NCBI GenBank assembly: GCA_014161675.1
Contig: GCA_014161675.1_4760.2
DNA length: 53,227 nucleotides
DNA from: a phage
Strand: one strand, 5' to 3'
Shown: positions 1,418 through 46,152 of the stretch, piece by piece
How positions within the stretch are numbered: the first letter of the stretch is position 1
Layout: each line of letters begins with the position of its first letter
Program-made: the position numbers and the translations under genes
The notes under the pieces: generated by a model
Told to the model about the DNA's origin: nothing
Seen by the model: only the letters and a program-made list of their open reading frames with translations
Database searches by the model: none

Positions 1418-1445
1418 ATTATACAGATTTAAATTTACTTGTCAA
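1418..1445 (-). promoter_or_regulatory. Sigma70-type promoter upstream of gene 32
   Basis: Minus strand TTGACA (1440-1445), 16-bp spacer, TATAAT (1418-1423); followed by an AU-rich leader and the gene 32 start codon. Confidence 0.5.
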
Positions 1446-2122
1446 CTATTTGTTTCGGCTTTTAATTGAGATATTTCTTTACACTCTTTAACTACTTTAA
1501 CAAATAATGCTCTTGCTTTTGCGGCGTCAATAACAAGTAGTTTCTTGTACGCCTTCATTTTAACACTATAAGTTTGCCAAATCAAGTCTTTGGCTACCTT
1601 GTCGTGTTCGTCGATTATATTTAGAAAGCTATCTAACAACATAAACGACTCAAACGATATAATCCGATTTTGCAGTAGTTTAAAAATACCGCTTGTTTCG
1701 GTTGCGGGATTATATGTAATTAGCTCTTTAAGAGTAACCCCGCGTTTCTCGGAGAAGTATACCAGACTTTTAATGTCATCGTCAAATCGTGTTGCTGCAT
1801 CGGTTATCTTTCCTATGTATTCCATATAAAAGCCGTATGCGTCAACATCAGTGATTTCGCCTACCCATGCATCGGTATTAGCTACCAGATTGCTTAGGAA
1901 TAGGAAGTATAATTCTCTTAGATTGTATTTTTCCGCTAATTTAGCGAAATAATACTTATCTCTGCGTTTATTGAATGCGGCATCAGATAACCGCATCCTC
2001 CAATTATATTTTACGCAATCATAACGCCCGTTCATGTGAGCTTTCATCATGCAATATAACATATACACAGATTTAGCATTAATTCGCATATCTGGATCTG
2101 GAGGAAGACGGTTTCTGATCAT
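1442..2122 (-). CDS. 59: Helicase loader gp59
   Basis: 226 aa; recalled T4 gp59 similarity (KYNWRMRLSDAAF, NKRRDKYYF, IISFESFMLLDSFLNIID); located between 32 and 33 as in T4. Confidence 0.9.
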   Translation of the reverse strand: MIRNRLPPDPDMRINAKSVYMLYCMMKAHMNGRYDCVKYNWRMRLSDAAFNKRRDKYYFAKLAEKYNLRELYFLFLSNLVANTDAWVGEITDVDAYGFYMEYIGKITDAATRFDDDIKSLVYFSEKRGVTLKELITYNPATETSGIFKLLQNRIISFESFMLLDSFLNIIDEHDKVAKDLIWQTYSVKMKAYKKLLVIDAAKARALFVKVVKECKEISQLKAETNS

Positions 2123-2131
2123 ACATACCCC

Positions 2132-2401
2132 TTAAATATCGAGAGTGTTGGTCGGTTCGTCGATCACTCCCTTCCTGAGTGTTCTATTTACTATACATTC
2201 TTGTGTGATCTTGTCAATAATGGACACCGGAATATACTTCTGATAGTGACCATATTCTATAGAGTTTTCCTCTACAAACTGAGTGGTCGCTTCAAGATAA
2301 GTCAATCCCTCTTCAACAACCAGTTTTTCGATTGCAAGACCGTTTGCTGTTTTGTTCGCGGCTTTTACCGCATGTTCATTAAGCATTGAACACCCGATCA
2401 T
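2132..2401 (-). CDS. 33: Late transcription co-activator gp33
   Basis: 89 aa; recalled T4 gp33 similarity (IEKLVVEEGLTYLEATTQFVEENSI); T4 position after 59. The start may be the internal Met at 2386, which would remove the overlap with dsbA. Confidence 0.75.
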   Translation of the reverse strand: MIGCSMLNEHAVKAANKTANGLAIEKLVVEEGLTYLEATTQFVEENSIEYGHYQKYIPVSIIDKITQECIVNRTLRKGVIDEPTNTLDI

Positions 2402-2654
2402 AGAGTTCTACTGCTTCATCGCGTTCTGCTTCGAAGGTTTCGCGCTGTTGCTGGTGATACAGTTTAAACAGAATGCCCCACATTTTACCATCTACGCCTA
2501 ATTCTTCTTTAGCACGCTGTTTGATCTCTTTGATCTTATCGCCGTATGCTTCTTGAATGGTTTTCTGATCGCTGGCTTCTTTAATCAGTTGTGCCAGGGT
2601 ATTTCCGTGTACATTTTCGTCAAATACTACTTTTTCTTTTTTCTGTTCAGTCAT
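2379..2654 (-). CDS. dsbA: dsDNA-binding protein DsbA-like
   Basis: 91 aa, lysine-rich and helical; size and position between 33 and rnh match T4 dsbA. Sequence identity not verified from memory. Confidence 0.55.
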   Translation of the reverse strand: MTEQKKEKVVFDENVHGNTLAQLIKEASDQKTIQEAYGDKIKEIKQRAKEELGVDGKMWGILFKLYHQQQRETFEAERDEAVELYDRVFNA

Positions 2655-2658
2655 AATA

Positions 2659-3255
2659 TTAACCCTCTTTCGTCATTAATTGAAAACCACGTTCAGCTTT
2701 TGAAATTTCGCTAGGACTTAAATCGTCACCAACATATTCTAGCATCATTTCTCGGATAATGTCAAGTGCTTTTTCATCACCTGATTTTAACTCGAACTCA
2801 AGTTCATAGTGAGCCTCTCCCATTCTTTCGCCGACTTTGCAATAATAGAAAGTGTCTTTGCACATTTCCACTATAGCACCCTCAAGGTCAAGTGTCAATG
2901 ACTTGCGGTATGTCATTACTTGCAATAAAGGAACGATAAGGTCGGAGTTTACGCCTAGACTATCAACATAATGATAGAAATCATCCATTGTTGAAACAGT
3001 AATTTCTTCTCGGTTGAAGAGTCCAGATTCACTATCACCTATTTTGACCATGATCAATGATCTATTAACGTCAAGTCGAGCATAAATTCCTTTTCGACGC
3101 AGTGCATGATCTTCGGTATCATAATAAAATTCGTGTTTTAGAGTGTTAGCACGATCTACTAGATTGTATCCGTCATACATTGCTACCCACAAATCACAGA
3201 TTGTTTCGACGCCAATTTGTGAGTGTGCATAGTATTTTAATTCAAGTTCTTTCAT
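2659..3255 (-). CDS. CYTH-domain (triphosphate tunnel metalloenzyme) protein
   Basis: 198 aa carrying CYTH hallmarks in order: N-terminal ExExK (ELELK), EFYYDTED...LRRKG...RLD, NREEITV, TYRKSL, and acidic strand YELEFEL. No gene occupies this dsbA-rnh position in T4. Confidence 0.8.
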   Translation of the reverse strand: MKELELKYYAHSQIGVETICDLWVAMYDGYNLVDRANTLKHEFYYDTEDHALRRKGIYARLDVNRSLIMVKIGDSESGLFNREEITVSTMDDFYHYVDSLGVNSDLIVPLLQVMTYRKSLTLDLEGAIVEMCKDTFYYCKVGERMGEAHYELEFELKSGDEKALDIIREMMLEYVGDDLSPSEISKAERGFQLMTKEG

Positions 3256-3265
3256 ATATCAACCC

Positions 3266-4213
3266 TTAGAACTCACCAATTTTCTGCAACATTTTAACTA
3301 ACGCATTTGTTACAAAATAGTTATAAATTTTACCGCGTGGTGCTGGTTTAGATTTCTCCCATGCTAACAAAATTTCATATTCGATGTTATCAGGAATAAA
3401 TTCAAAATCAATAAGTTCGCGGTTTTCGTCAAAGCGTCGTGCTTCTTCCTCTGTCATCAAATACTTTGGATCTTCGGCATCGAAAATTTGCTCTAACCAT
3501 TTGGTTGCAATTGGTTTAGCTCGTTCTCCTTCCAGTCGTGAGATAATGAAATCACTACGGCACTTGATCGAAGCTACACCGTCTTTTGCGTCACCCTTAA
3601 CACATTTTACCATAAGGTCTTTGTAAGGGCTACCATATTTGCATTTCTTCCATGCTTTCTGTACTGGTGCCCACTGTTTCACATTTTTGTATTTGTGCAA
3701 CTGTGTGTAGTCACCATCGCCGGAGTTGATTAGCACCTGGCGACCTTCTACAGAAAACTTTTTAGTTAATACAGCGATTATATCATCCGCTTCAACTTTG
3801 TCAACCTTAATAACGTGATAAGGCATGTTCTCTTTAAACTCTTCGGTGATCTTATTGATCGCAGCAAAGATCATCTCCCAATCACGCGGATCTGCGTCTC
3901 GTTTTTCCTTACGGTTGCGTTTATAGTAAGGTGCGATATCACGTCGCCAGTAACCTTTGCTTGAATCAAAGGCAAGTACCGTAATTGGGTATTGCTCTTT
4001 GAATTTTGTCATATTATAACGCATGGTGTCAAGAATAAGATGACGGATCATGCCTTCACTAATAGGATCTTCCGGTTTAAAGGTATGCGAGATAGTAGCA
4101 ATCATAAGCTGCGACATATCAATCAAATGCACACCTTCCGGTAGTTTATCTTCTGGATCATCGAAGAAATCATTAAGTGTAGCGGTAGTTTTTGTAAACG
4201 GGTTATACGTCAT
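3266..4213 (-). CDS. rnh: RNase H (5'-3' exonuclease / flap endonuclease)
   Basis: 315 aa; recalled T4 RNase H similarity (GYWRRD, YYKRNR, MPYHVIKVDKVEADDIIAVL, SGDGDYTQLHKYKNVKQW, PPRGKIYNYF). Confidence 0.9.
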   Translation of the reverse strand: MTYNPFTKTTATLNDFFDDPEDKLPEGVHLIDMSQLMIATISHTFKPEDPISEGMIRHLILDTMRYNMTKFKEQYPITVLAFDSSKGYWRRDIAPYYKRNRKEKRDADPRDWEMIFAAINKITEEFKENMPYHVIKVDKVEADDIIAVLTKKFSVEGRQVLINSGDGDYTQLHKYKNVKQWAPVQKAWKKCKYGSPYKDLMVKCVKGDAKDGVASIKCRSDFIISRLEGERAKPIATKWLEQIFDAEDPKYLMTEEEARRFDENRELIDFEFIPDNIEYEILLAWEKSKPAPRGKIYNYFVTNALVKMLQKIGEF

Positions 4214-4215
4214 AA

Positions 4216-4401
4216 TTAAGTTCTCTCCACTCTCACAACAACATATTCGCCAAACGAGTTAGATACTTCACGATCATACCCGTATTTCTCCATAACTCGC
4301 AGAATTGCATTGTTTAATTCGGCACGGAAATAATTGTAATCCTTATCAGGGATTCTGTCAACTATCCATTTTGCACCTTCTGACAAATCAACTTTAACCA
4401 T
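4216..4401 (-). CDS. Hypothetical protein (61 aa)
   Basis: ORF preceded by AAAGAGGA; lies in the divergent region between rnh and gene 34. Confidence 0.45.
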   Translation of the reverse strand: MVKVDLSEGAKWIVDRIPDKDYNYFRAELNNAILRVMEKYGYDREVSNSFGEYVVVRVERT

Positions 4402-4475: not shown

Positions 4476-7400
4476 ATGGCAGATTTTTCTCAACATTTCA
4501 AGGCCACATTTGGCTTTGACGCTGGTAATGAAAAGGTCGTCAATGTAGCATTGGCTGATAAGAATGTCAACACCGATGCGGTCAACGTTGAATTTTTCAA
4601 TTACCATAATGGTATTACTCAGTATGACACAACTCGCGGTTATGATCAATACGGAACTACAATCTATCAAAACCGTCCGTATTATGCAAAAGAAGATATC
4701 ACAAAGCCAGCAGGAGATTTTGACCCGACTAAATGGCAAGCACTGCGCACGGACCCACGTTGGGATTATATTGCAGCAACTTCCGGTGATACTCCTTTAC
4801 AGTCTGGCGATTATATCGCAGCAGATGGTCAATTTGCAAACTTGACTTTCTCTATGCCAACTAAACCAGCAGAGGGAGACACTATAACAGTAAAAGATAT
4901 CGGTGGCAAGTGTGGTGTTAACGAATTATCGTTCTTGAGTACAGGACATGAGTTTTACCATAATGGTAATGTGTATAACAGAAAATGGTATTGCACTACC
5001 CCGTATGCAATGAACTATTTCATCTTTGTTCGGAATCGTTGGCATGTTTATCAGACAGGAACAGAGCCACGCGGTGTGTACGCACAGCCAGCGATTGATG
5101 CTATTCAAATGCAGAATGGTGATCAGGTATTTCGTCGTAGTTCGTTGGGTAATATTACCTTAGTGCTTCCTAAGTTTGCCAACAATGGCGACATGATCCA
5201 GACTACAGACCTTGACGGATTAACCGCAACCAACCACGTTACGGTTAAAGTTCATGAGCACGCAGAAGAACAATCAATTGGCACGTCCGGTCTAAAAGAG
5301 ATTATCGGTAAGCGTAGCGGTCATGGTGTATTCATCTTTGACAAGACGGAAAACTTATGGCGTTTGTGGGATGGTGATCAGTCTGTTCGTCTTAAACCGA
5401 TCATCAATGACACTCGCTTGCAACCTAATAGCTATGTTGCTGTATTTGGTGGTCGTGATGTTACTCTGACGCTGCCGACCAATGTCGAGCCGGGTGATCG
5501 TATTCAAGTTTCTATGCAGTATATGCACGGAAACCAGAATTGCCGTATTATCACCGCCACAGAGGATACAAAAATCCTTATGTCGAAAAACATGGTTCAG
5601 TTTCCGAAGCGTAGCGAGTACCCATTCAACGGGACCGACACATGGAAGGAAGTGTCTGAATTGTCGTTCAATGCGGCTAGTGATTATGTACCTTATCTGG
5701 AGTTCTCTTATTCAGAAGGTGATGATGGTAAGAAACATTGGCTGGTAGCACACGCTCATCCGATCGTAGAACGAGTAGATCCGACTCGTAAAGCGCGTGT
5801 CGGTGTAATTGCACTGGCTACCCAGACTGAAACGAATAAAAACCATGAAGAGAATCCTAGCGACGAAGTTGCAGTAACACCAAAAATGCTGGCTAATAAA
5901 ACCGCCAACGAAACTCGACGCGGTATTGCTCGCATTGCGACTCAGGCGGAAACGCATCAAGATACTGGTTCCATCTTCCTGGATGATGTTATCGTTACGC
6001 CTAAAAAGTTAAATGACTGTGTTGCTACCGAAGCCCGTCGTGGTGTGATGGAAATTGCAACCCAGCACGAAACCAATGAAGGTTTAGATGATACCCGCGC
6101 TATTACTCCTAAGAAATTAGAAGAACGTCGCGCTTCCGAAGATCTCGCTGGTATTGCTGAAATTGTTCAGGCTGGCGGTAGTGCTGCCGCTCGACGTGGC
6201 GAAGCTGGTACAGGGATCTATAACATCAACGACCATGTTAAAATTGTTACGCCACAAAACATCAACGAAGTCAAGGCGACCGAAACTTCCCGTGGTGTTG
6301 GCTATCTGGCAACTGACGCGGAAGTGCAAGGGGCTACAGAATCAACCCCGCAAGATGCTTTACTAATCACGACTCGCACGCTAACGAAACGTACTGCTAC
6401 AGAATCGCGTACTGGTATCGCTGAAATTGCAACTCAGGAAGAAACAAACTTAGGTCAAAGTGATAACCATATCATCACGCCTAAAAAGCTGCATACTCGC
6501 CGCGCAACGGAAACTTTACATGGTTTAGCAGAAATTGCAACTCAGACGGAATTTGACGCAGGTCTTGACGATTCTCGCATTTCTACCCCATTGAAGATTA
6601 AAACCTTCTTTGAGAATGCACAGCGTTTGAAAGTAGATCCGACTCAGGGGCTTAACCTTACTGGTGATTTGTGGCAAGGTATCATGATCAGCGGTCTGGA
6701 TGCAACCGAAGACACAAAAGGTGTCGCTAAAGTTGCTACTACTCAGCTTACGGATGCTGGTCAAGATGATACTACAATCATCACGCCTAAAAAGCTGCAA
6801 GGCAAAAAAGCCACCGAAGGTAAAGAAGGCATTATCCGAGTTGGTACTCAAGCCGAAACCGTGGCTGGTATTATGGACAATGTAGCAATTTCTCCGAAGA
6901 ACTTCAAATATGTTGTTCAGACAGAGGATACATGGAAAGCAACCGAAGCGCGTCGTGGCTTCTTGAAAGTTGCTACTCAGGAAAACTGTTTTGTTGGTGA
7001 TAATCTGCAAGGTTCTACTCAAGAACTAGGAAACTACCAGCATGACGGAATTGCTGTTACTCCGAAAGGATTAAACTACGCACTTGCTAATTTCTTACCT
7101 AAGATGGCAACCGCTCAGAATAGTTTGAAATTGGGTAACGTAGAGGCCGCTAAATGGGCGCGTAGAGACATTGACCAGACCATAGAGAGCAATTATACGT
7201 TTAATAAAAACGTTAACGTGAAGGGCGATTTAGAGTGCTTAAAATCTGGTTCCTTTGAAACTCTGTCTGTGACTAAGAACTCGACCGATGTTCCGAGTAA
7301 TGGTCATCTGGTATTGGGTGAGCGTGGAGTTGACGGTCACACCGGAATTACTCTGCATGGCACAACCGCATCGGAAGGCATGAAAAACTCTTGGTCTATT

Positions 7401-11153: not shown

Positions 11154-13937
11154 ATGGCAGATTTAAGCAGAATCCAATTTAAACGCACTAGCACTAAAGG
11201 TCGTAAACCTGATGCTAGTGCGATGAATCCTGGGGAATTGGCAATCAACCTTGCGGATCAATATCTTCTTACTAAAAATGATTCCGGTACTATTATCAAT
11301 TTAAGTTGTCCTCCGGTTTATGACCGCGATGTTACAATGGCGGGTAAGGTTAAAGGTAATAATTATATCTTAAGTAAAACCGCTAACTATCTGGAAGATC
11401 AGACAGCGAGAGATCTTAACTACTTTGGCGCTTTCCGTACCAATGGTCTTGATGGTCTTCTCGAACTCACGCTAAACGTTCCTCACTCTTCCGGTGTCCA
11501 ACATGGTCGAGGATTTACTTTCCAGTATGGACATACTGGATCACGAGTAGAAACCTATGGATATAATAGAGAAGGTCAAAAAGCATTTAGCTATAAAATG
11601 TATCACGAAGGTGATAAACCAACTCCAGGAGAATTGAACGTCTATAGCAAACAAGAAATTGACCGTATGTTTGTTAAGAACGTTAAAATGGTTGTTCCTT
11701 CTGGTGGTGCAACCCGTGGTTATTTTAAAATTGCATCCGCAATAATCCCGCAGAGTGGTCGGATGGCGTTTCTGCGAATCTATGGTGGTAATGGATATAA
11801 TGTAAACTCATATGATCAAGTTGATTTTCTTGAAATTGTTATTCGTAGTGGTAATAATAACCCTAAAGGCGTTAGTATTGCTGCATATCGTCGAAATTCT
11901 TTGAACGTCCACGAAGTATTTGCAATTAATACTTCCGGGGATAACTATGACATTTATGTTAACTATGGTCGTTACACCGATAACGTTATTGTAGAGTTTG
12001 GAAAAACTGTTGATGTTGCATTGACTGTTCACGATGTTCCTGAATTTTCGGCGACTAAACCAGCAACCGGAACTAAATTTGATGCTCGTGTTATTACGAT
12101 GTTCAACACCGAAAACAAAGCCGGAACGTTGATGTTTGATAATAACAATCAGTTAACCTATGATATTGTTAGCCTTAGCAATGGTCCTGATGATGTTAGA
12201 AATTATCTGCGTAAATTCCGAAGTAAAGCGGGTGAAATGATTTGGCATGAAACAGTTCAGGGTGCTGTATATCGTCTTGCTACTGGAACTACTGATTCTA
12301 CGGAAGTTCTTAGAGTTGATTCTAATAGTGCTATACCCGGTAGTTATAAAGGATATGTAATTACTGGTAAAATGGAATTGCATGGTAGTGGTAATTCGAT
12401 GATTTTACATCGCCAGACTGCTCAAGCCGCGTACATGTCGTGGTGGGATCGTCGTGATGGCAAAAACCAACGTAGCGGTTATATCGGTCATGCAGATGGG
12501 ACTAGTGATGCTATTGTGTGGAATAATGATATTGGACAAAACAGTGTTGTTCTAGAAACATCTGGTCAAATATCTTTCAGAACAGGTGAAACCAAAATTG
12601 TATATACCAACGGACAATATTATTCCGCTAACTCTGATGCATACCGTATGATCTTTGGTAATTACGGTGCATTCTGGCGTAATGACGGCACTAAAGTTTA
12701 TCTTCTGTCTACTGCTGAAAACGATAAATTTGGTGGTTGGAATGGTTATCGTCCATTCATTTATGATTTAACTTCCGGTAACGTTCAATTAGGCGGTGAT
12801 GGTAACGAAGAAGCATTAACGTTAGAACGTGCTTCTCGTGCCGCTCGCTTTAGTAATGACGTTTACATTAAGAAAGGGCATTTGACTTTCGACGCTGGGC
12901 GATTAAATTCCCGCGATTACTTCCGGTTTAACCATTGGGGCGATAGCAATAACGGTCGTGATAACATTCTATATCTAGAAGACAGTAAAGGTCGACATTT
13001 TAGCACCGAGCGTAATATGGCAACGGGTGCATTAAAAGCCGACTTCTTAGGCGATCTTGAAGTTGGTGGTAAGTTGATATGGGGTAAGAATACCGGACAA
13101 TCTAGCTTCAATATTCGTGCATGGGGTAATGATTCTCGTAAGCAAGTATTAGAATGCGCGGATGAAAGTGGTTGGCATTGGTATACCGAACGTACTGCGG
13201 GTGGCACTGGTCCGATTAAGTTCTCTGTTGCAGGTTCTTTCCATAGCGCAAGTGATGTTAACGTAGGCGGTAGTCTGAATTTTGGTAATGCTATTCAACG
13301 CGGCGCTAGCGTCATTACTATAGCTTCTAGTTCTGCTGGTGCTGGTTCTTTTGCATCTCAACATGATGATAACGTCAAAGCACCTATTTTCCAACGTTTA
13401 GACCGTGGTGATGCGTCTACATATGTTCCTTTGATTAAGCAACGTTATGTTCAAGGTGCAGTAACATTCTCGTTGGGTATGCTTCTTAACGAAGGTTCAT
13501 GGCGAGTTCATGTTAAAGGTTCTGGTGTTGAATCTAATACTACCTTCTATAAAAACGGCGATTTCCAAGCTGGACGCAATGGTAACTTTAACGACGTTTA
13601 CATTCGCTCTGATGCTCGCCTTAAAATCAATAAGGAAGAGTATAAAGAGAATGCCACTGATAAAGTTAATCGCTTGACTGTATACACCTACGATAAGGTT
13701 AAATCTTTAACTGACCGTACTGTCATTGCTCATGAAGTTGGTATTATTGCTCAGGATCTTGAGAAAGAATTGCCGGAAGCAGTAACAACTTCTAACATCG
13801 GCGATCCTGATAAGCCAGAAGAGATCTTAACAATTTCTAACTCTGCTGTCAACGCTCTTTTAATTAAGGCGTTTCAGGAAATGAGCGAAGAACTTAAAGC
13901 CGTTAAAGCTGAACTAGCGGAACTTAAAAAGAATTAA
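11154..13937 (+). CDS. 37: Long tail fibre distal subunit gp37 with C-terminal intramolecular chaperone (peptidase S74-type) domain
   Basis: 927 aa; recalled T4 gp37 similarity (IQFKR...KGRKP, AGAGSFASQ, DVKAPIFQRLDRGDASTYVPLIKQRYVQG). C-terminus carries YIRS-DARLK and HEVGIIAQDLEKELPEAV, the signature of autoproteolytic fibre chaperone domains. Predicted cleavage after Ser819 (codon 13608-13610). Confidence 0.9.
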   Translation: MADLSRIQFKRTSTKGRKPDASAMNPGELAINLADQYLLTKNDSGTIINLSCPPVYDRDVTMAGKVKGNNYILSKTANYLEDQTARDLNYFGAFRTNGLDGLLELTLNVPHSSGVQHGRGFTFQYGHTGSRVETYGYNREGQKAFSYKMYHEGDKPTPGELNVYSKQEIDRMFVKNVKMVVPSGGATRGYFKIASAIIPQSGRMAFLRIYGGNGYNVNSYDQVDFLEIVIRSGNNNPKGVSIAAYRRNSLNVHEVFAINTSGDNYDIYVNYGRYTDNVIVEFGKTVDVALTVHDVPEFSATKPATGTKFDARVITMFNTENKAGTLMFDNNNQLTYDIVSLSNGPDDVRNYLRKFRSKAGEMIWHETVQGAVYRLATGTTDSTEVLRVDSNSAIPGSYKGYVITGKMELHGSGNSMILHRQTAQAAYMSWWDRRDGKNQRSGYIGHADGTSDAIVWNNDIGQNSVVLETSGQISFRTGETKIVYTNGQYYSANSDAYRMIFGNYGAFWRNDGTKVYLLSTAENDKFGGWNGYRPFIYDLTSGNVQLGGDGNEEALTLERASRAARFSNDVYIKKGHLTFDAGRLNSRDYFRFNHWGDSNNGRDNILYLEDSKGRHFSTERNMATGALKADFLGDLEVGGKLIWGKNTGQSSFNIRAWGNDSRKQVLECADESGWHWYTERTAGGTGPIKFSVAGSFHSASDVNVGGSLNFGNAIQRGASVITIASSSAGAGSFASQHDDNVKAPIFQRLDRGDASTYVPLIKQRYVQGAVTFSLGMLLNEGSWRVHVKGSGVESNTTFYKNGDFQAGRNGNFNDVYIRSDARLKINKEEYKENATDKVNRLTVYTYDKVKSLTDRTVIAHEVGIIAQDLEKELPEAVTTSNIGDPDKPEEILTISNSAVNALLIKAFQEMSEELKAVKAELAELKKN

Positions 13938-14946: not shown

Positions 14947-15191
14947 TGGCGCATAGAAGCCCCTGAATCACATTTTGACGCTGTATGATGAAAACATGTA
15001 GCGTACCAGTCATCGGCTTGCTTGTCTTCGTCAGAAAACGCGTAATTTCGTTGTACGCCGTTTTCTACTTTGACCAGTGCAATAGCTGTTTCTGGAAGAT
15101 CAATCAATCGGACAAAATCACCATCTTCCCACTCTACACGAGCAATATCATAGCCCATCTCAAAGTATACAATCGCTTGTTCTAATTTCAT
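14943..15191 (-). CDS. Hypothetical protein (82 aa)
   Basis: ORF convergent with t. N-terminus MKLEQAIVYFEMGYDIARVEW loosely resembles a small phage DUF family; not verified. Confidence 0.45.
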   Translation of the reverse strand: MKLEQAIVYFEMGYDIARVEWEDGDFVRLIDLPETAIALVKVENGVQRNYAFSDEDKQADDWYATCFHHTASKCDSGASMRQ

Positions 15192-15511
15192 TCTGGAAAC
15201 TTCCCGTAAACATTCTCTGCCAGCTTACGTGCATCTTTTACAATATCTTTCATGTAATGACTATAATTTTTAGCTAGATCAATGATGCAATCAACAAAGA
15301 AGTAATAGCGTCGCAGTGCTACCAGCTCAACATCTTCAAGATGACCATTTTCTCCAATCGCTGAAATATGTTTAAATTCCTTTCGGATCGCGTCCATCGC
15401 TACATTAACTTCTTTTATAATATCTTTCGTATTATATGCACCTCGACTAATCAAAATTTTGGTTAGGTCTTCTGCTTTTTCGTGAAAGTTGTCAATTTCA
15501 AACTCGATCAT
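15188..15511 (-). CDS. Hypothetical protein, tandem paralog A
   Basis: Start placed at the ATG after GAGAGGTGA (the track start is a GTG 6 nt upstream). The C-terminus ...KDARKLAENVYGKF parallels the neighbouring gene. Confidence 0.5.
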   Translation of the reverse strand: MIEFEIDNFHEKAEDLTKILISRGAYNTKDIIKEVNVAMDAIRKEFKHISAIGENGHLEDVELVALRRYYFFVDCIIDLAKNYSHYMKDIVKDARKLAENVYGKFPE

Positions 15512-15624: not shown

Positions 15625-15957
15625 TCAAAATTTACCGAAAATATTCTCTGTCATAATTCTTGCTTCGTCGATTATTTTCGTCATGTTCATGGTGTAGTTA
15701 TGATCATTTAGCGCCTTAATGACAACGAGCAAGGAATCTAAAAACACTCGATACCGGGTATATTCTACACTATTTGTGAATACCGATGTTTTCTCTACTT
15801 TATCGATCAGATAGCCTAAAGCCGATAGCGCCTCGTTTACTTCCCTTGTTACTTTATCTGCGCTAAACAACACCGGATAAAGACGCGGTGTGATTAACCG
15901 CGCTGCCTCTTTCAATTCGGTCGCTTTCCATGATTCATATTTGTCATAGTTAAACAT
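15625..15957 (-). CDS. Hypothetical protein, tandem paralog B
   Basis: 110 aa; C-terminal ...IDEARIMTENIFGKF and the preceding Y..(F/Y)..D..(L/I) region align with paralog A. Confidence 0.5.
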   Translation of the reverse strand: MFNYDKYESWKATELKEAARLITPRLYPVLFSADKVTREVNEALSALGYLIDKVEKTSVFTNSVEYTRYRVFLDSLLVVIKALNDHNYTMNMTKIIDEARIMTENIFGKF

Positions 15958-45377: not shown

Positions 45378-45755
45378 TTATGGGTTTACTGCGTGTTCGT
45401 TACGAATCTTGAGCATTTTGTTTTGGAAGTTTTCCGCAGCTTGCTCATCAATAGTATGAGTATATCTGAATCCAATGTATGCCGTCAAGTATTGTTGCAG
45501 AGCATAGACAGTAACAGGATTCTTTGCGGTCTTCTTGCCTTCGAGATATACCAGATCCCCGCAAGGTTCAAAAGCAAGTTTACGACGAATCACATTATCA
45601 ACAAACTCATCAACAACAAAATGCCAAATGTTGCTATCGGTTCCAATATCAAAATTAACCACACTGCCACGTTTGACATAATCAAACGGTATCGGGAATA
45701 GTTTATAGTCAAGTTCGATAAACATTAATTGTTCTTTTAAGCTCATACGTTTCAT
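45378..45755 (-). CDS. Hypothetical protein, positional counterpart of T4 rpbA
   Basis: Start trimmed to the Met of MKRMSL to avoid overlap with the upstream gene. Assignment by position and size only. Confidence 0.45.
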   Translation of the reverse strand: MKRMSLKEQLMFIELDYKLFPIPFDYVKRGSVVNFDIGTDSNIWHFVVDEFVDNVIRRKLAFEPCGDLVYLEGKKTAKNPVTVYALQQYLTAYIGFRYTHTIDEQAAENFQNKMLKIRNEHAVNP

Positions 45756-45759
45756 TCTA

Positions 45760-46152
45760 TCACTTCCCATCAGCAATTGCGATCAGACGAGTTACTACTA
45801 CGCTAGCGGCTTCAATCAGCAGTTCATCAGTGTCAATCTGATAACCTTTTTCGAGAATATCTTTACCTCGAATAGTTTTAGCGCCTTTAGCAATTGAATC
45901 ATCGTAATACTTGCGCATTGCAGCGATCCATTCTTTTTGCACCATATCATCAATATGCGCGTACAGTTCAAAGCGTGCTTGCTGCGGGATAACCTTCATT
46001 TTAGCTTTCTCGCTTTCTGGCATTTGTAGTACCCACGCTTTACGGATCTTGTTCATTGCTCTGTCAAATTCGAGACTGGTTTTCTTGTTCTGAATGTCTG
46101 CTACAGTAATTTTAGCCAGGTTTGCGGAAGTAGTCATAATATTAATCTCCAA
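45760..46152 (-). CDS. Hypothetical protein (130 aa)
   Basis: ORF between 46 and 45. Confidence 0.45.
   Translation of the reverse strand: MEINIMTTSANLAKITVADIQNKKTSLEFDRAMNKIRKAWVLQMPESEKAKMKVIPQQARFELYAHIDDMVQKEWIAAMRKYYDDSIAKGAKTIRGKDILEKGYQIDTDELLIEAASVVVTRLIAIADGK

Follow-up and report, generated by a model that had tools for sequence, protein, structure and literature searches.

An open reading frame (ORF) of 198 codons between rnh and dsbA in a 53,227-nt contig of a T4-like coliphage from the RB49/JSE group (GCA_014161675.1_4760.2; this whole stretch is the window, and coordinates are positions in it) is a genuine CYTH enzyme gene that is absent from phage T4. Our preferred explanation, which we hold with moderate confidence, is that it is a lineage-specific accessory gene of Krischvirus phages, encoding a stand-alone triphosphate tunnel metalloenzyme (TTM) closest to the tunnel domain of YgiF, an inorganic triphosphatase of the host. 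It is an uncharacterised member of a known superfamily and not a new kind of system. What the present analysis adds is the typing of the protein as a hydrolase and not a cyclase, a variant Y-x-R-x-D strand in the tunnel, and an allelic hypervariability that is sharply localised within the gene.

The domain assignment itself is not new, because the GenBank record of RB49 (AY343333) notes the counterpart RB49ORF244c as 'similar to ... HI1598, ygiF' and Nolan et al. (2006) listed it as a CYTH domain (PMC1524935); the impression of novelty given by a preliminary description of this DNA, made from the sequence alone, was thus overstated. A few GenBank records label the gene 'inorganic triphosphatase' or 'adenylate cyclase', and in PHROGs the ORF is matched over its full length by phrog_14893, a family without an assigned function. 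CYTH triphosphatases are also scattered in jumbo phages, according to a comparative paper (PMC7824862). Around the gene, a 3.1-kb region shares 96-98.5% identity with Krischvirus genomes, those of JSE and RB49 among them.

Membership of the CYTH family, proposed in that description, is borne out by Pfam (PF01928), which matches residues 41-190 at 28.0 bits (gathering score 23.2), and by hhalign, which aligns the protein with YgiF-like proteins at a probability of 99.6%. The predicted fold also agrees with what had been proposed. An AlphaFold2 model built from a 21-sequence family alignment (mean predicted local distance difference test score, pLDDT, 91.8; predicted template-modelling score, pTM, 0.85), which is a prediction and not a solved structure, has strands at residues 2-10, 31-46, 57-62, 67-76, 79-87, 108-123, 127-140 and 148-159 and a plug helix at 186-195. 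These form an eight-stranded antiparallel beta-barrel tunnel with the helix at its C-terminal end. When the model was compared with the Protein Data Bank (PDB) using Foldseek, all matches to E 1e-6 were TTMs. YgiF came first (E 4e-13, template-modelling score 0.77, 25% identity), followed by plant TTM3, Bacillus 'putative adenylate cyclases', thiamine triphosphatases, SaTTM and class IV adenylate cyclases; Cet1-like RNA triphosphatases closed the list. In sequence the family stands apart. Among 1.84 billion representatives, a profile search returned only six proteins below 1e-10; the many weaker matches that follow are stand-alone CYTH proteins of the ordinary kind and proteins of about 500 amino acids, the length of CYTH-CHAD proteins. 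Pfam found no CHAD domain in this single-domain protein.

Active-site motifs and predicted chemistry

We read conservation from the 21 family members and column frequencies from a profile alignment of 151 CYTH representatives. For YgiF, Martinez et al. (2015; PMC4641920) describe a metal site 2 made up of Glu-4, Glu-6 and Glu-162 and a metal site 1 to which Glu-160 is the last ligand; Arg-56 donates the proton in catalysis, and Lys-69 acts as a substrate and positioning residue. The phage equivalents are listed in Table 1. Several of the CYTH signatures named in the preliminary description are real and invariant in the family, namely ExExK, YYDT (residues 44-47), the R-E-E strand and the acidic strand, in which E153 and E155 are Glu in 144 and 145 of the 151 representatives. 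Two others did not hold up. The 'paired basic residues' R53, R54 and K55 lie in a variable helix and are not conserved, and the K-x-R signature is absent; the conserved basic residues are R60, K71, R117 and, in the plug helix, K186 and R189. D134 is likewise conserved.

The strand that carries the catalytic arginine has an unusual composition. Column 60 is Arg in 146 of the 151 representatives, and hhalign against YgiF-like proteins sets R60 on R56 in the same register as the profile alignment. The spacing from YYD to the first arginine is 14 residues in the phage protein, in YgiF and in protein P0047 alike. The second arginine of the RxR strand, present in 109 of the 151 representatives, is missing; its place is taken by Asp62, which does not vary within Krischvirus, whereas distant relatives have D or N there. 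This second arginine is not strictly required, because the equivalent R54A mutation had little effect in AtTTM3 (PMC4641920). Column 58 is usually A, S, G or T, and the Tyr of the phage protein, which stands where thiamine triphosphatase has its stacking Trp, occurs there in 5 of the 151.

An alternative placement, with Tyr58 in the position of the catalytic arginine, came from a pairwise phmmer alignment to YgiF; we rejected it as a two-residue misregister in view of the 151-sequence profile and the hhalign alignment.

According to Vogt et al. (2021), the HFxxxxExExK motif is confined to class IV cyclases, in which a small residue (V, C or L) replaces the first arginine and ExA stands in place of the ExE of hydrolases; W/Y-x-R-x-R marks thiamine triphosphatases, and other hydrolases have a small residue at its first position (PMC8233210). 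All three cyclase determinants fail in the phage protein. The HF motif is absent, and indeed impossible, because ExExK begins at residue 3 (M-K-E-L-E-L-K); R60 is kept; and the acidic strand reads ExE, not ExA. The thiamine triphosphatase motif is incomplete, with the aromatic residue and the first arginine present and the second arginine absent. Apart from that arginine, the protein passed every motif test for a two-metal TTM hydrolase. Judged by sequence, then, published motif rules type the predicted enzyme as a two-metal hydrolase and not as a class IV adenylate cyclase.

In the scenario that we prefer, a triphosphate-bearing substrate would bind in the basic tunnel (K7, R60, K71, R82, R117 and K186/R189), E153 would complete metal site 1 on the triphosphate, and R60 would serve as proton donor. 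By analogy with the two-metal mechanism established for YgiF, AtTTM3 and thiamine triphosphatase, the terminal phosphate would be hydrolysed in a Mg2+- or Mn2+-dependent reaction. The products would be orthophosphate and a diphosphate compound, and the enzyme would thus be a hydrolase, not a cyclase. A probable substrate is inorganic triphosphate or short polyphosphate, the default by analogy with YgiF, or else a small organic or nucleoside triphosphate; the combination of Tyr58 and Asp62 weakly hints at a substrate with an organic moiety.

Several points weigh against this reading. Similarity to characterised TTMs is low (24-25% identity to YgiF; phmmer against the PDB, E 0.009), and a search of NCBIfam gave no meaningful match. 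The pairwise alignment to YgiF sets the RxR strand two residues off the profile register. Residue roles come from alignments and the AlphaFold2 model, with the tunnel-facing residues deduced from strand alternation. The position of Tyr58 is V or I in the most distant relatives, which weakens the argument for aromatic stacking. A specificity like that of YgiF is not to be assumed, because the second arginine is Asp and the CHAD domain is absent. The argument for early expression, set out below, is drawn only from promoter-like matches. Lastly, the literature that we searched contains no functional work on phage CYTH proteins, nor biochemical or genetic results for any member of the family.

A hypervariable cassette at a conserved locus

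In the GenBank phage set, tblastn found the protein in 59 records and in no others. All are Krischvirus, 58 of them at 82-99.5% identity and Skers at 58%, and in all 59 the gene lies between rnh and dsbA, as the preliminary description had it for the window. That description had also stated correctly that T4 has no gene there: the T4 gap is 8 nt, and rnh and dsbA are directly adjacent in six other genera as well (Biquartavirus, Jiaodavirus, Bragavirus, Schizotequatrovirus, Pseudotevenvirus and that of Acinetobacter phage 133). The gene is conserved genus-wide but has no known function, and so is not the core gene of established role that would have spoken against the preliminary description.

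Uncultured relatives occupy the same position. Every relative that could be placed adjoins dsbA-33 directly upstream in T4-type contigs, including metagenomic proteins of 30-46% identity. The 46% identical relative sits between rnh and dsbA, and the gene of the 30-35% identical relatives is directly upstream of dsbA-33 in all three contigs, which are too short to reach rnh. The outgroup relatives P0044 and P0045 had no match in the IMG/VR and JGI metagenomes and were placed instead by a search for homologous proteins and by the contigs that encode them; tblastn of these two against GenBank phages gave matches to Krischvirus only. Given that all placeable relatives, even those of 30-46% identity, adjoin dsbA-33, the slot has long been occupied in the Krischvirus lineage and its uncultured relatives. 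The GC content of the gene is the same as that of its flanks, and no compositional sign of a recent foreign origin was seen in it.

Within this stable position the gene itself is highly variable. The window was compared at the DNA level with four Krischvirus genomes or contigs (Skers, L005, L007 and L014). Genes 32, 59, 33, dsbA and rnh are 95-100% identical, but identity falls to about 50% over positions 2850-3150 before recovering to 93-100% over the final 120 nt of the ORF. For the nearby tail-fibre gene 34, L014 gives 91-100% and the other three comparisons 80-95%. Residues 1-9 and 149-198 are nearly identical even between proteins that share 55% identity overall. When clustered on residues 10-148, the proteins fall into at least three deep groups, 38-42% identical to one another in amino acids with C-termini that are 96-100% identical, and intermediate lineages exist too. 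Between groups, the proportion of synonymous differences (pS) is about 0.77 in the cassette, which is saturated, and 0.03-0.2 in the 3' quarter. Because pS is saturated in the one and low in the other, the groups represent old alleles or imported cassettes joined by recombination, and not merely relaxed constraint.

The cassette is under purifying selection, with a ratio of non-synonymous to synonymous change (dN/dS) of 0.27-0.38 within lineages. Invariant residues alternate along the strands (Y58/R60/D62, F80/R82/E84, T115/R117, C132/D134/F136/Y138 and E151/E153/E155), so placed that the tunnel-lining residues are the same in all deep alleles, and the helices and loops are variable. This pattern fits a tunnel interior that is held constant and an exterior that is free or driven to change. 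We propose that the exterior either changes very rapidly or is exchanged through recombination between the conserved ends that encode the catalytic motifs, and that the tunnel would be held constant throughout.

Two disrupted copies bear on how much the gene is needed. In the metagenomic Krischvirus contig L014, codon 106 of the CYTH copy (6759-7361) is changed from CAA to TAA, the only nonsense codon there, and in the plaque-forming isolate vB_EcoM_G2494 (401-996 of locus L021) the gene is split into ORFs of 66 and 130 amino acids. Unless both are sequencing errors, they suggest that the CYTH gene is not essential.

Across the whole window, ORFs have a median identity of 97.4% to Skers, and the CYTH gene (57.8%) belongs with the four or five real genes that diverge most; the others are a gp37-like tail fibre and three small genes without an assigned function. 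Among more distant relatives it is 30-46% identical where its neighbours are 69-81% identical.

A 927-aa ORF at 11154-13937 (plus strand) shares only 40.6% identity with the sequence that matches it best in the tail-fibre gene region of Skers, a variability expected of a receptor-binding protein and a yardstick for that of the CYTH gene. Two paralogous ORFs, 15188-15511 and 15625-15957 (both minus strand; 107 and 110 amino acids), belong to phrog_9457 (no assigned function), have no Pfam match and are 53% and 32% identical to their Skers counterparts, which makes them another hypervariable locus of the early region. A 130-aa ORF at 45378-45770 (minus strand; phrog_16137, no assigned function) is 67% identical to a Skers counterpart annotated 'putative RNA polymerase binding protein', and so also falls well short of the identity of the backbone.

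A real possibility, if one we would put short of an even chance, is that the hypervariability is not adaptive. A weakly constrained, dispensable gene would have been given diverged cassettes repeatedly by homologous recombination, as happens elsewhere in mosaic T4-type genomes, with ExExK at the 5' end and ExE plus dsbA at the 3' end as recombination anchors. Saturated synonymous sites in the cassette next to a backbone-like 3' quarter are a signature of recombination, the breakpoints coincide with the two conserved stretches that encode catalytic motifs, null alleles exist, and the GC content equals that of the flanks. However, the pattern is seen in only a handful of about 75 shared genes, the clearest other case being the receptor-binding tail fibre, and no donor phage with a closer cassette was found. 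Nor is the gene drifting, since all alleles keep the same catalytic residues and dN/dS is 0.15-0.38.

A role in counter-defence or host takeover seems to us unlikely. Here the enzyme would hydrolyse a triphosphate-bearing immune or stress molecule, for instance pppGpp/pppApp, the linear pppNpN intermediates of CD-NTase or Cas10 signalling, or chain-terminating or deaminated (d)NTPs such as ddhNTP or (d)ITP, and the exterior would vary because a host sensor or inhibitor recognises the protein and the two are in an arms race. The action on host nucleotide pools or signalling nucleotides suggested in the preliminary description is likewise speculative. Since this concerns the biological role, it is compatible with the hydrolase chemistry proposed above. 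The gene stands beside the gp37-like tail fibre among the most divergent of the window, its divergence forms a sharp island in which the tunnel is kept and the surface varies, it outpaces its neighbours in every comparison, and it is accessory, apparently dispensable and part of a probable early cluster. On the other hand, neither PADLOC models (for the window protein and four relatives) nor other defence families gave a match, the literature searched holds no report of anti-defence activity for a phage CYTH protein, overall dN/dS is below 1, and neutral import of diverged cassettes can also yield saturated synonymous divergence. A bolder version, which we rate as decidedly improbable, is that the protein is a phage counter-measure or a host-recognised target in such a race, its tunnel destroying an immune or stress nucleotide early in infection and its ancient alleles being kept because a host factor recognises or inhibits the exterior.

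Very improbable, in our view, is that the protein is a polynucleotide 5'-triphosphatase, which would take the gamma-phosphate off pppRNA, whether on lagging-strand primers handled by the adjacent RNase H or on host transcripts for faster decay. The tunnel fold is common to the Cet1, mimivirus and poxvirus RNA triphosphatases, and the gene adjoins rnh in a cluster of replication genes; the combination of a family hidden Markov model match with close structural similarity to Cet1-like RNA triphosphatases (PF02940) was not found. We give almost no credence to a class IV (CyaB-type) adenylate cyclase making cAMP to manipulate host CRP regulation, as some GenBank labels would have it, since all three determinants fail and YgiF and other phosphatases are much closer in structure; cyclisation, named in the preliminary description as a possible activity, is accordingly unlikely.

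In the literature searched, no bacteriophage CYTH or TTM protein has an assigned function, and cellular members, YgiF included, have no clear physiological role. A dispensable gene that is restricted to one lineage and varies between near-identical phages about as much as a receptor-binding protein is typical of the phage-host interface. If the counter-defence role were true, this would be the first phage TTM with an assigned function and would found a new class of anti-defence enzymes; a role confined to the housekeeping of triphosphate or polyphosphate would make it an ordinary accessory metabolic gene. The enzyme is small, soluble and well predicted, and belongs to easily manipulated coliphages.

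Neighbouring genes and candidate promoters

Pfam identifies the neighbours of the CYTH gene as T4 RNase H, DsbA, gene 33 (Trans_coact) and gene 59 (Table 1). The Shine-Dalgarno sequence of dsbA lies within the final codons of the CYTH ORF, with AAAGAGGG preceding the dsbA ATG.

Table 1. Position of the CYTH gene, its motifs, its neighbours and candidate promoters in the window
Feature	Position	Strand	Remarks
CYTH/TTM gene, 198 aa, ATG to TAA	2659..3255	minus	RB49ORF244c; phrog_14893
ExExK motif, E3/E5/K7	3235..3249	minus	invariant in 21/21; equivalent to YgiF Glu-4/Glu-6, two of three acidic-patch Glu, metal site 2
Y58-A-R60-L-D62 strand	3070..3084	minus	R60, catalytic Arg; Tyr at thiamine triphosphatase 'W' position; Asp for second Arg
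K71, tunnel Lys	3043..3045	minus	equivalent to YgiF Lys-69 in family, profile and hhalign alignments
R82-E83-E84 tunnel strand	3004..3012	minus	R82 and E84 invariant; R in 142/151, E in 143/151
R117, tunnel Arg	2905..2907	minus	invariant; R in 140/151
E151-L-E153-F-E155 strand	2791..2805	minus	E153, metal 1 Glu (YgiF E160); E155, metal 2 Glu (YgiF E162)
S185-K-A-E-R-G190, C-terminal plug helix	2686..2703	minus	K186 in 143/151, R189 in 129/151; helix 186-195 in model
Hypervariable cassette, codons 10-148	2812..3228	minus	about 50% nucleotide identity against 95-100% in flanks; at least three deep allele groups
Conserved 3' quarter, codons 149-198	2659..2811	minus	93-100% nucleotide identity across alleles; holds a promoter-like site and the dsbA ribosome-binding site
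rnh (T4-type RNase H / 5'-3' exonuclease), upstream neighbour	3266..4213	minus	stop 10 nt before CYTH ATG
dsbA, downstream neighbour	2379..2654	minus	ATG 4 nt after CYTH stop
Gene 33 (Pfam Trans_coact)	2132-2401		cluster neighbour
Gene 59	1442-2122		cluster neighbour
sigma70-like TTGACA-18-TAGAAT, TG-extended, inside CYTH ORF	2736..2765	minus	111 nt upstream of dsbA
sigma70-like TTGACA-17-TATAGT, TG-extended, inside variable cassette	2870..2898	minus	recurs in diverged alleles
Perfect sigma70 consensus (12/12), TG-extended, inside rnh	3777..3804	minus	nearest strong candidate promoter upstream of CYTH gene
Further near-consensus sigma70 matches	2190-2217, 1418-1445	minus	1418-1445 falls on the early promoter annotated ahead of gene 32 in RB49

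On the gene strand, sigma70-type matches are about twice as frequent as in shuffled sequence. The five in the rnh-CYTH-dsbA-33-59 cluster match 11-12 of 12 consensus positions, most are TG-extended, and they lie inside coding sequence. Comparable matches occur inside the CYTH ORF of diverged loci (L009 and L011-L013) at similar distances from dsbA, a recurrence which suggests that internal promoters are a maintained feature; such promoters may be part of the reason why the 3' quarter is conserved. Near the ORF, the gene strand has no canonical T4 late promoter (TATAAATA). The preliminary description had expected early expression from the position of the gene among replication genes, and a tightly packed, same-strand cluster with sigma70-type matches fits this expectation. 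Early expression is plausible on these grounds, and the gene would be co-transcribed with rnh, dsbA, 33 and 59, probably early, and be dispensable in culture.

Mobile and small genes vary around the cluster. An HNH homing endonuclease gene lies between genes 59 and 32 in Skers and in L014 (6802-7398 of L002 and 8562-9158 of L014), and is lacking in the window (about 1388-1441) and in RB49; FL15, PHB13, E26 and other isolates apparently have the same gene, judged by split alignments and feature names, and T4 has the GIY-YIG endonuclease SegG in this slot. Krischvirus phages share a 61-aa ORF (4216-4401, minus strand; phrog_3594, no assigned function) between rnh and gene 34; T4 lacks it, and its rnh faces gene 34 directly. 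In L014, an ORF with HNH_3 and AP2 domains (5043-5606), a putative homing endonuclease absent from the window, lies between gene 34 and the 61-aa ORF.

Relation to known enzymes

The phage protein corresponds exactly to RB49ORF244c and phrog_14893 of published Krischvirus genomes, which are the same gene. Among characterised enzymes the closest is E. coli YgiF, a CYTH-CHAD inorganic triphosphatase (PDB 5a60/5a61) with 24-25% identity. YgiF has 433 amino acids and a CHAD domain, whereas the phage protein has 198 and none, and in the tunnel its second arginine, R58, is replaced by Asp62 and a Gly by Tyr. With the mammalian 25-kDa thiamine triphosphatase the phage protein shares the TTM hydrolase motifs and an aromatic residue two positions before the catalytic arginine (W53 in mouse, Tyr58 in the phage); however, thiamine triphosphatase needs both arginines of W/Y-x-R-x-R, the second of which is Asp here, and identity is 14-18%. 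CyaB and YpAC-IV have the CYTH fold too, and it is from them that some phage records take the label 'adenylate cyclase', but the phage protein differs from both in lacking the HF motif, in keeping the gatekeeper arginine and in having ExE and not ExA. In its architecture it resembles the single-domain TTMs of bacteria and archaea (NeuTTM, CthTTM, SaTTM and the BH2851 cluster), which likewise have about 150-200 amino acids, the two-metal motif set and the hydrolase-type ExE.

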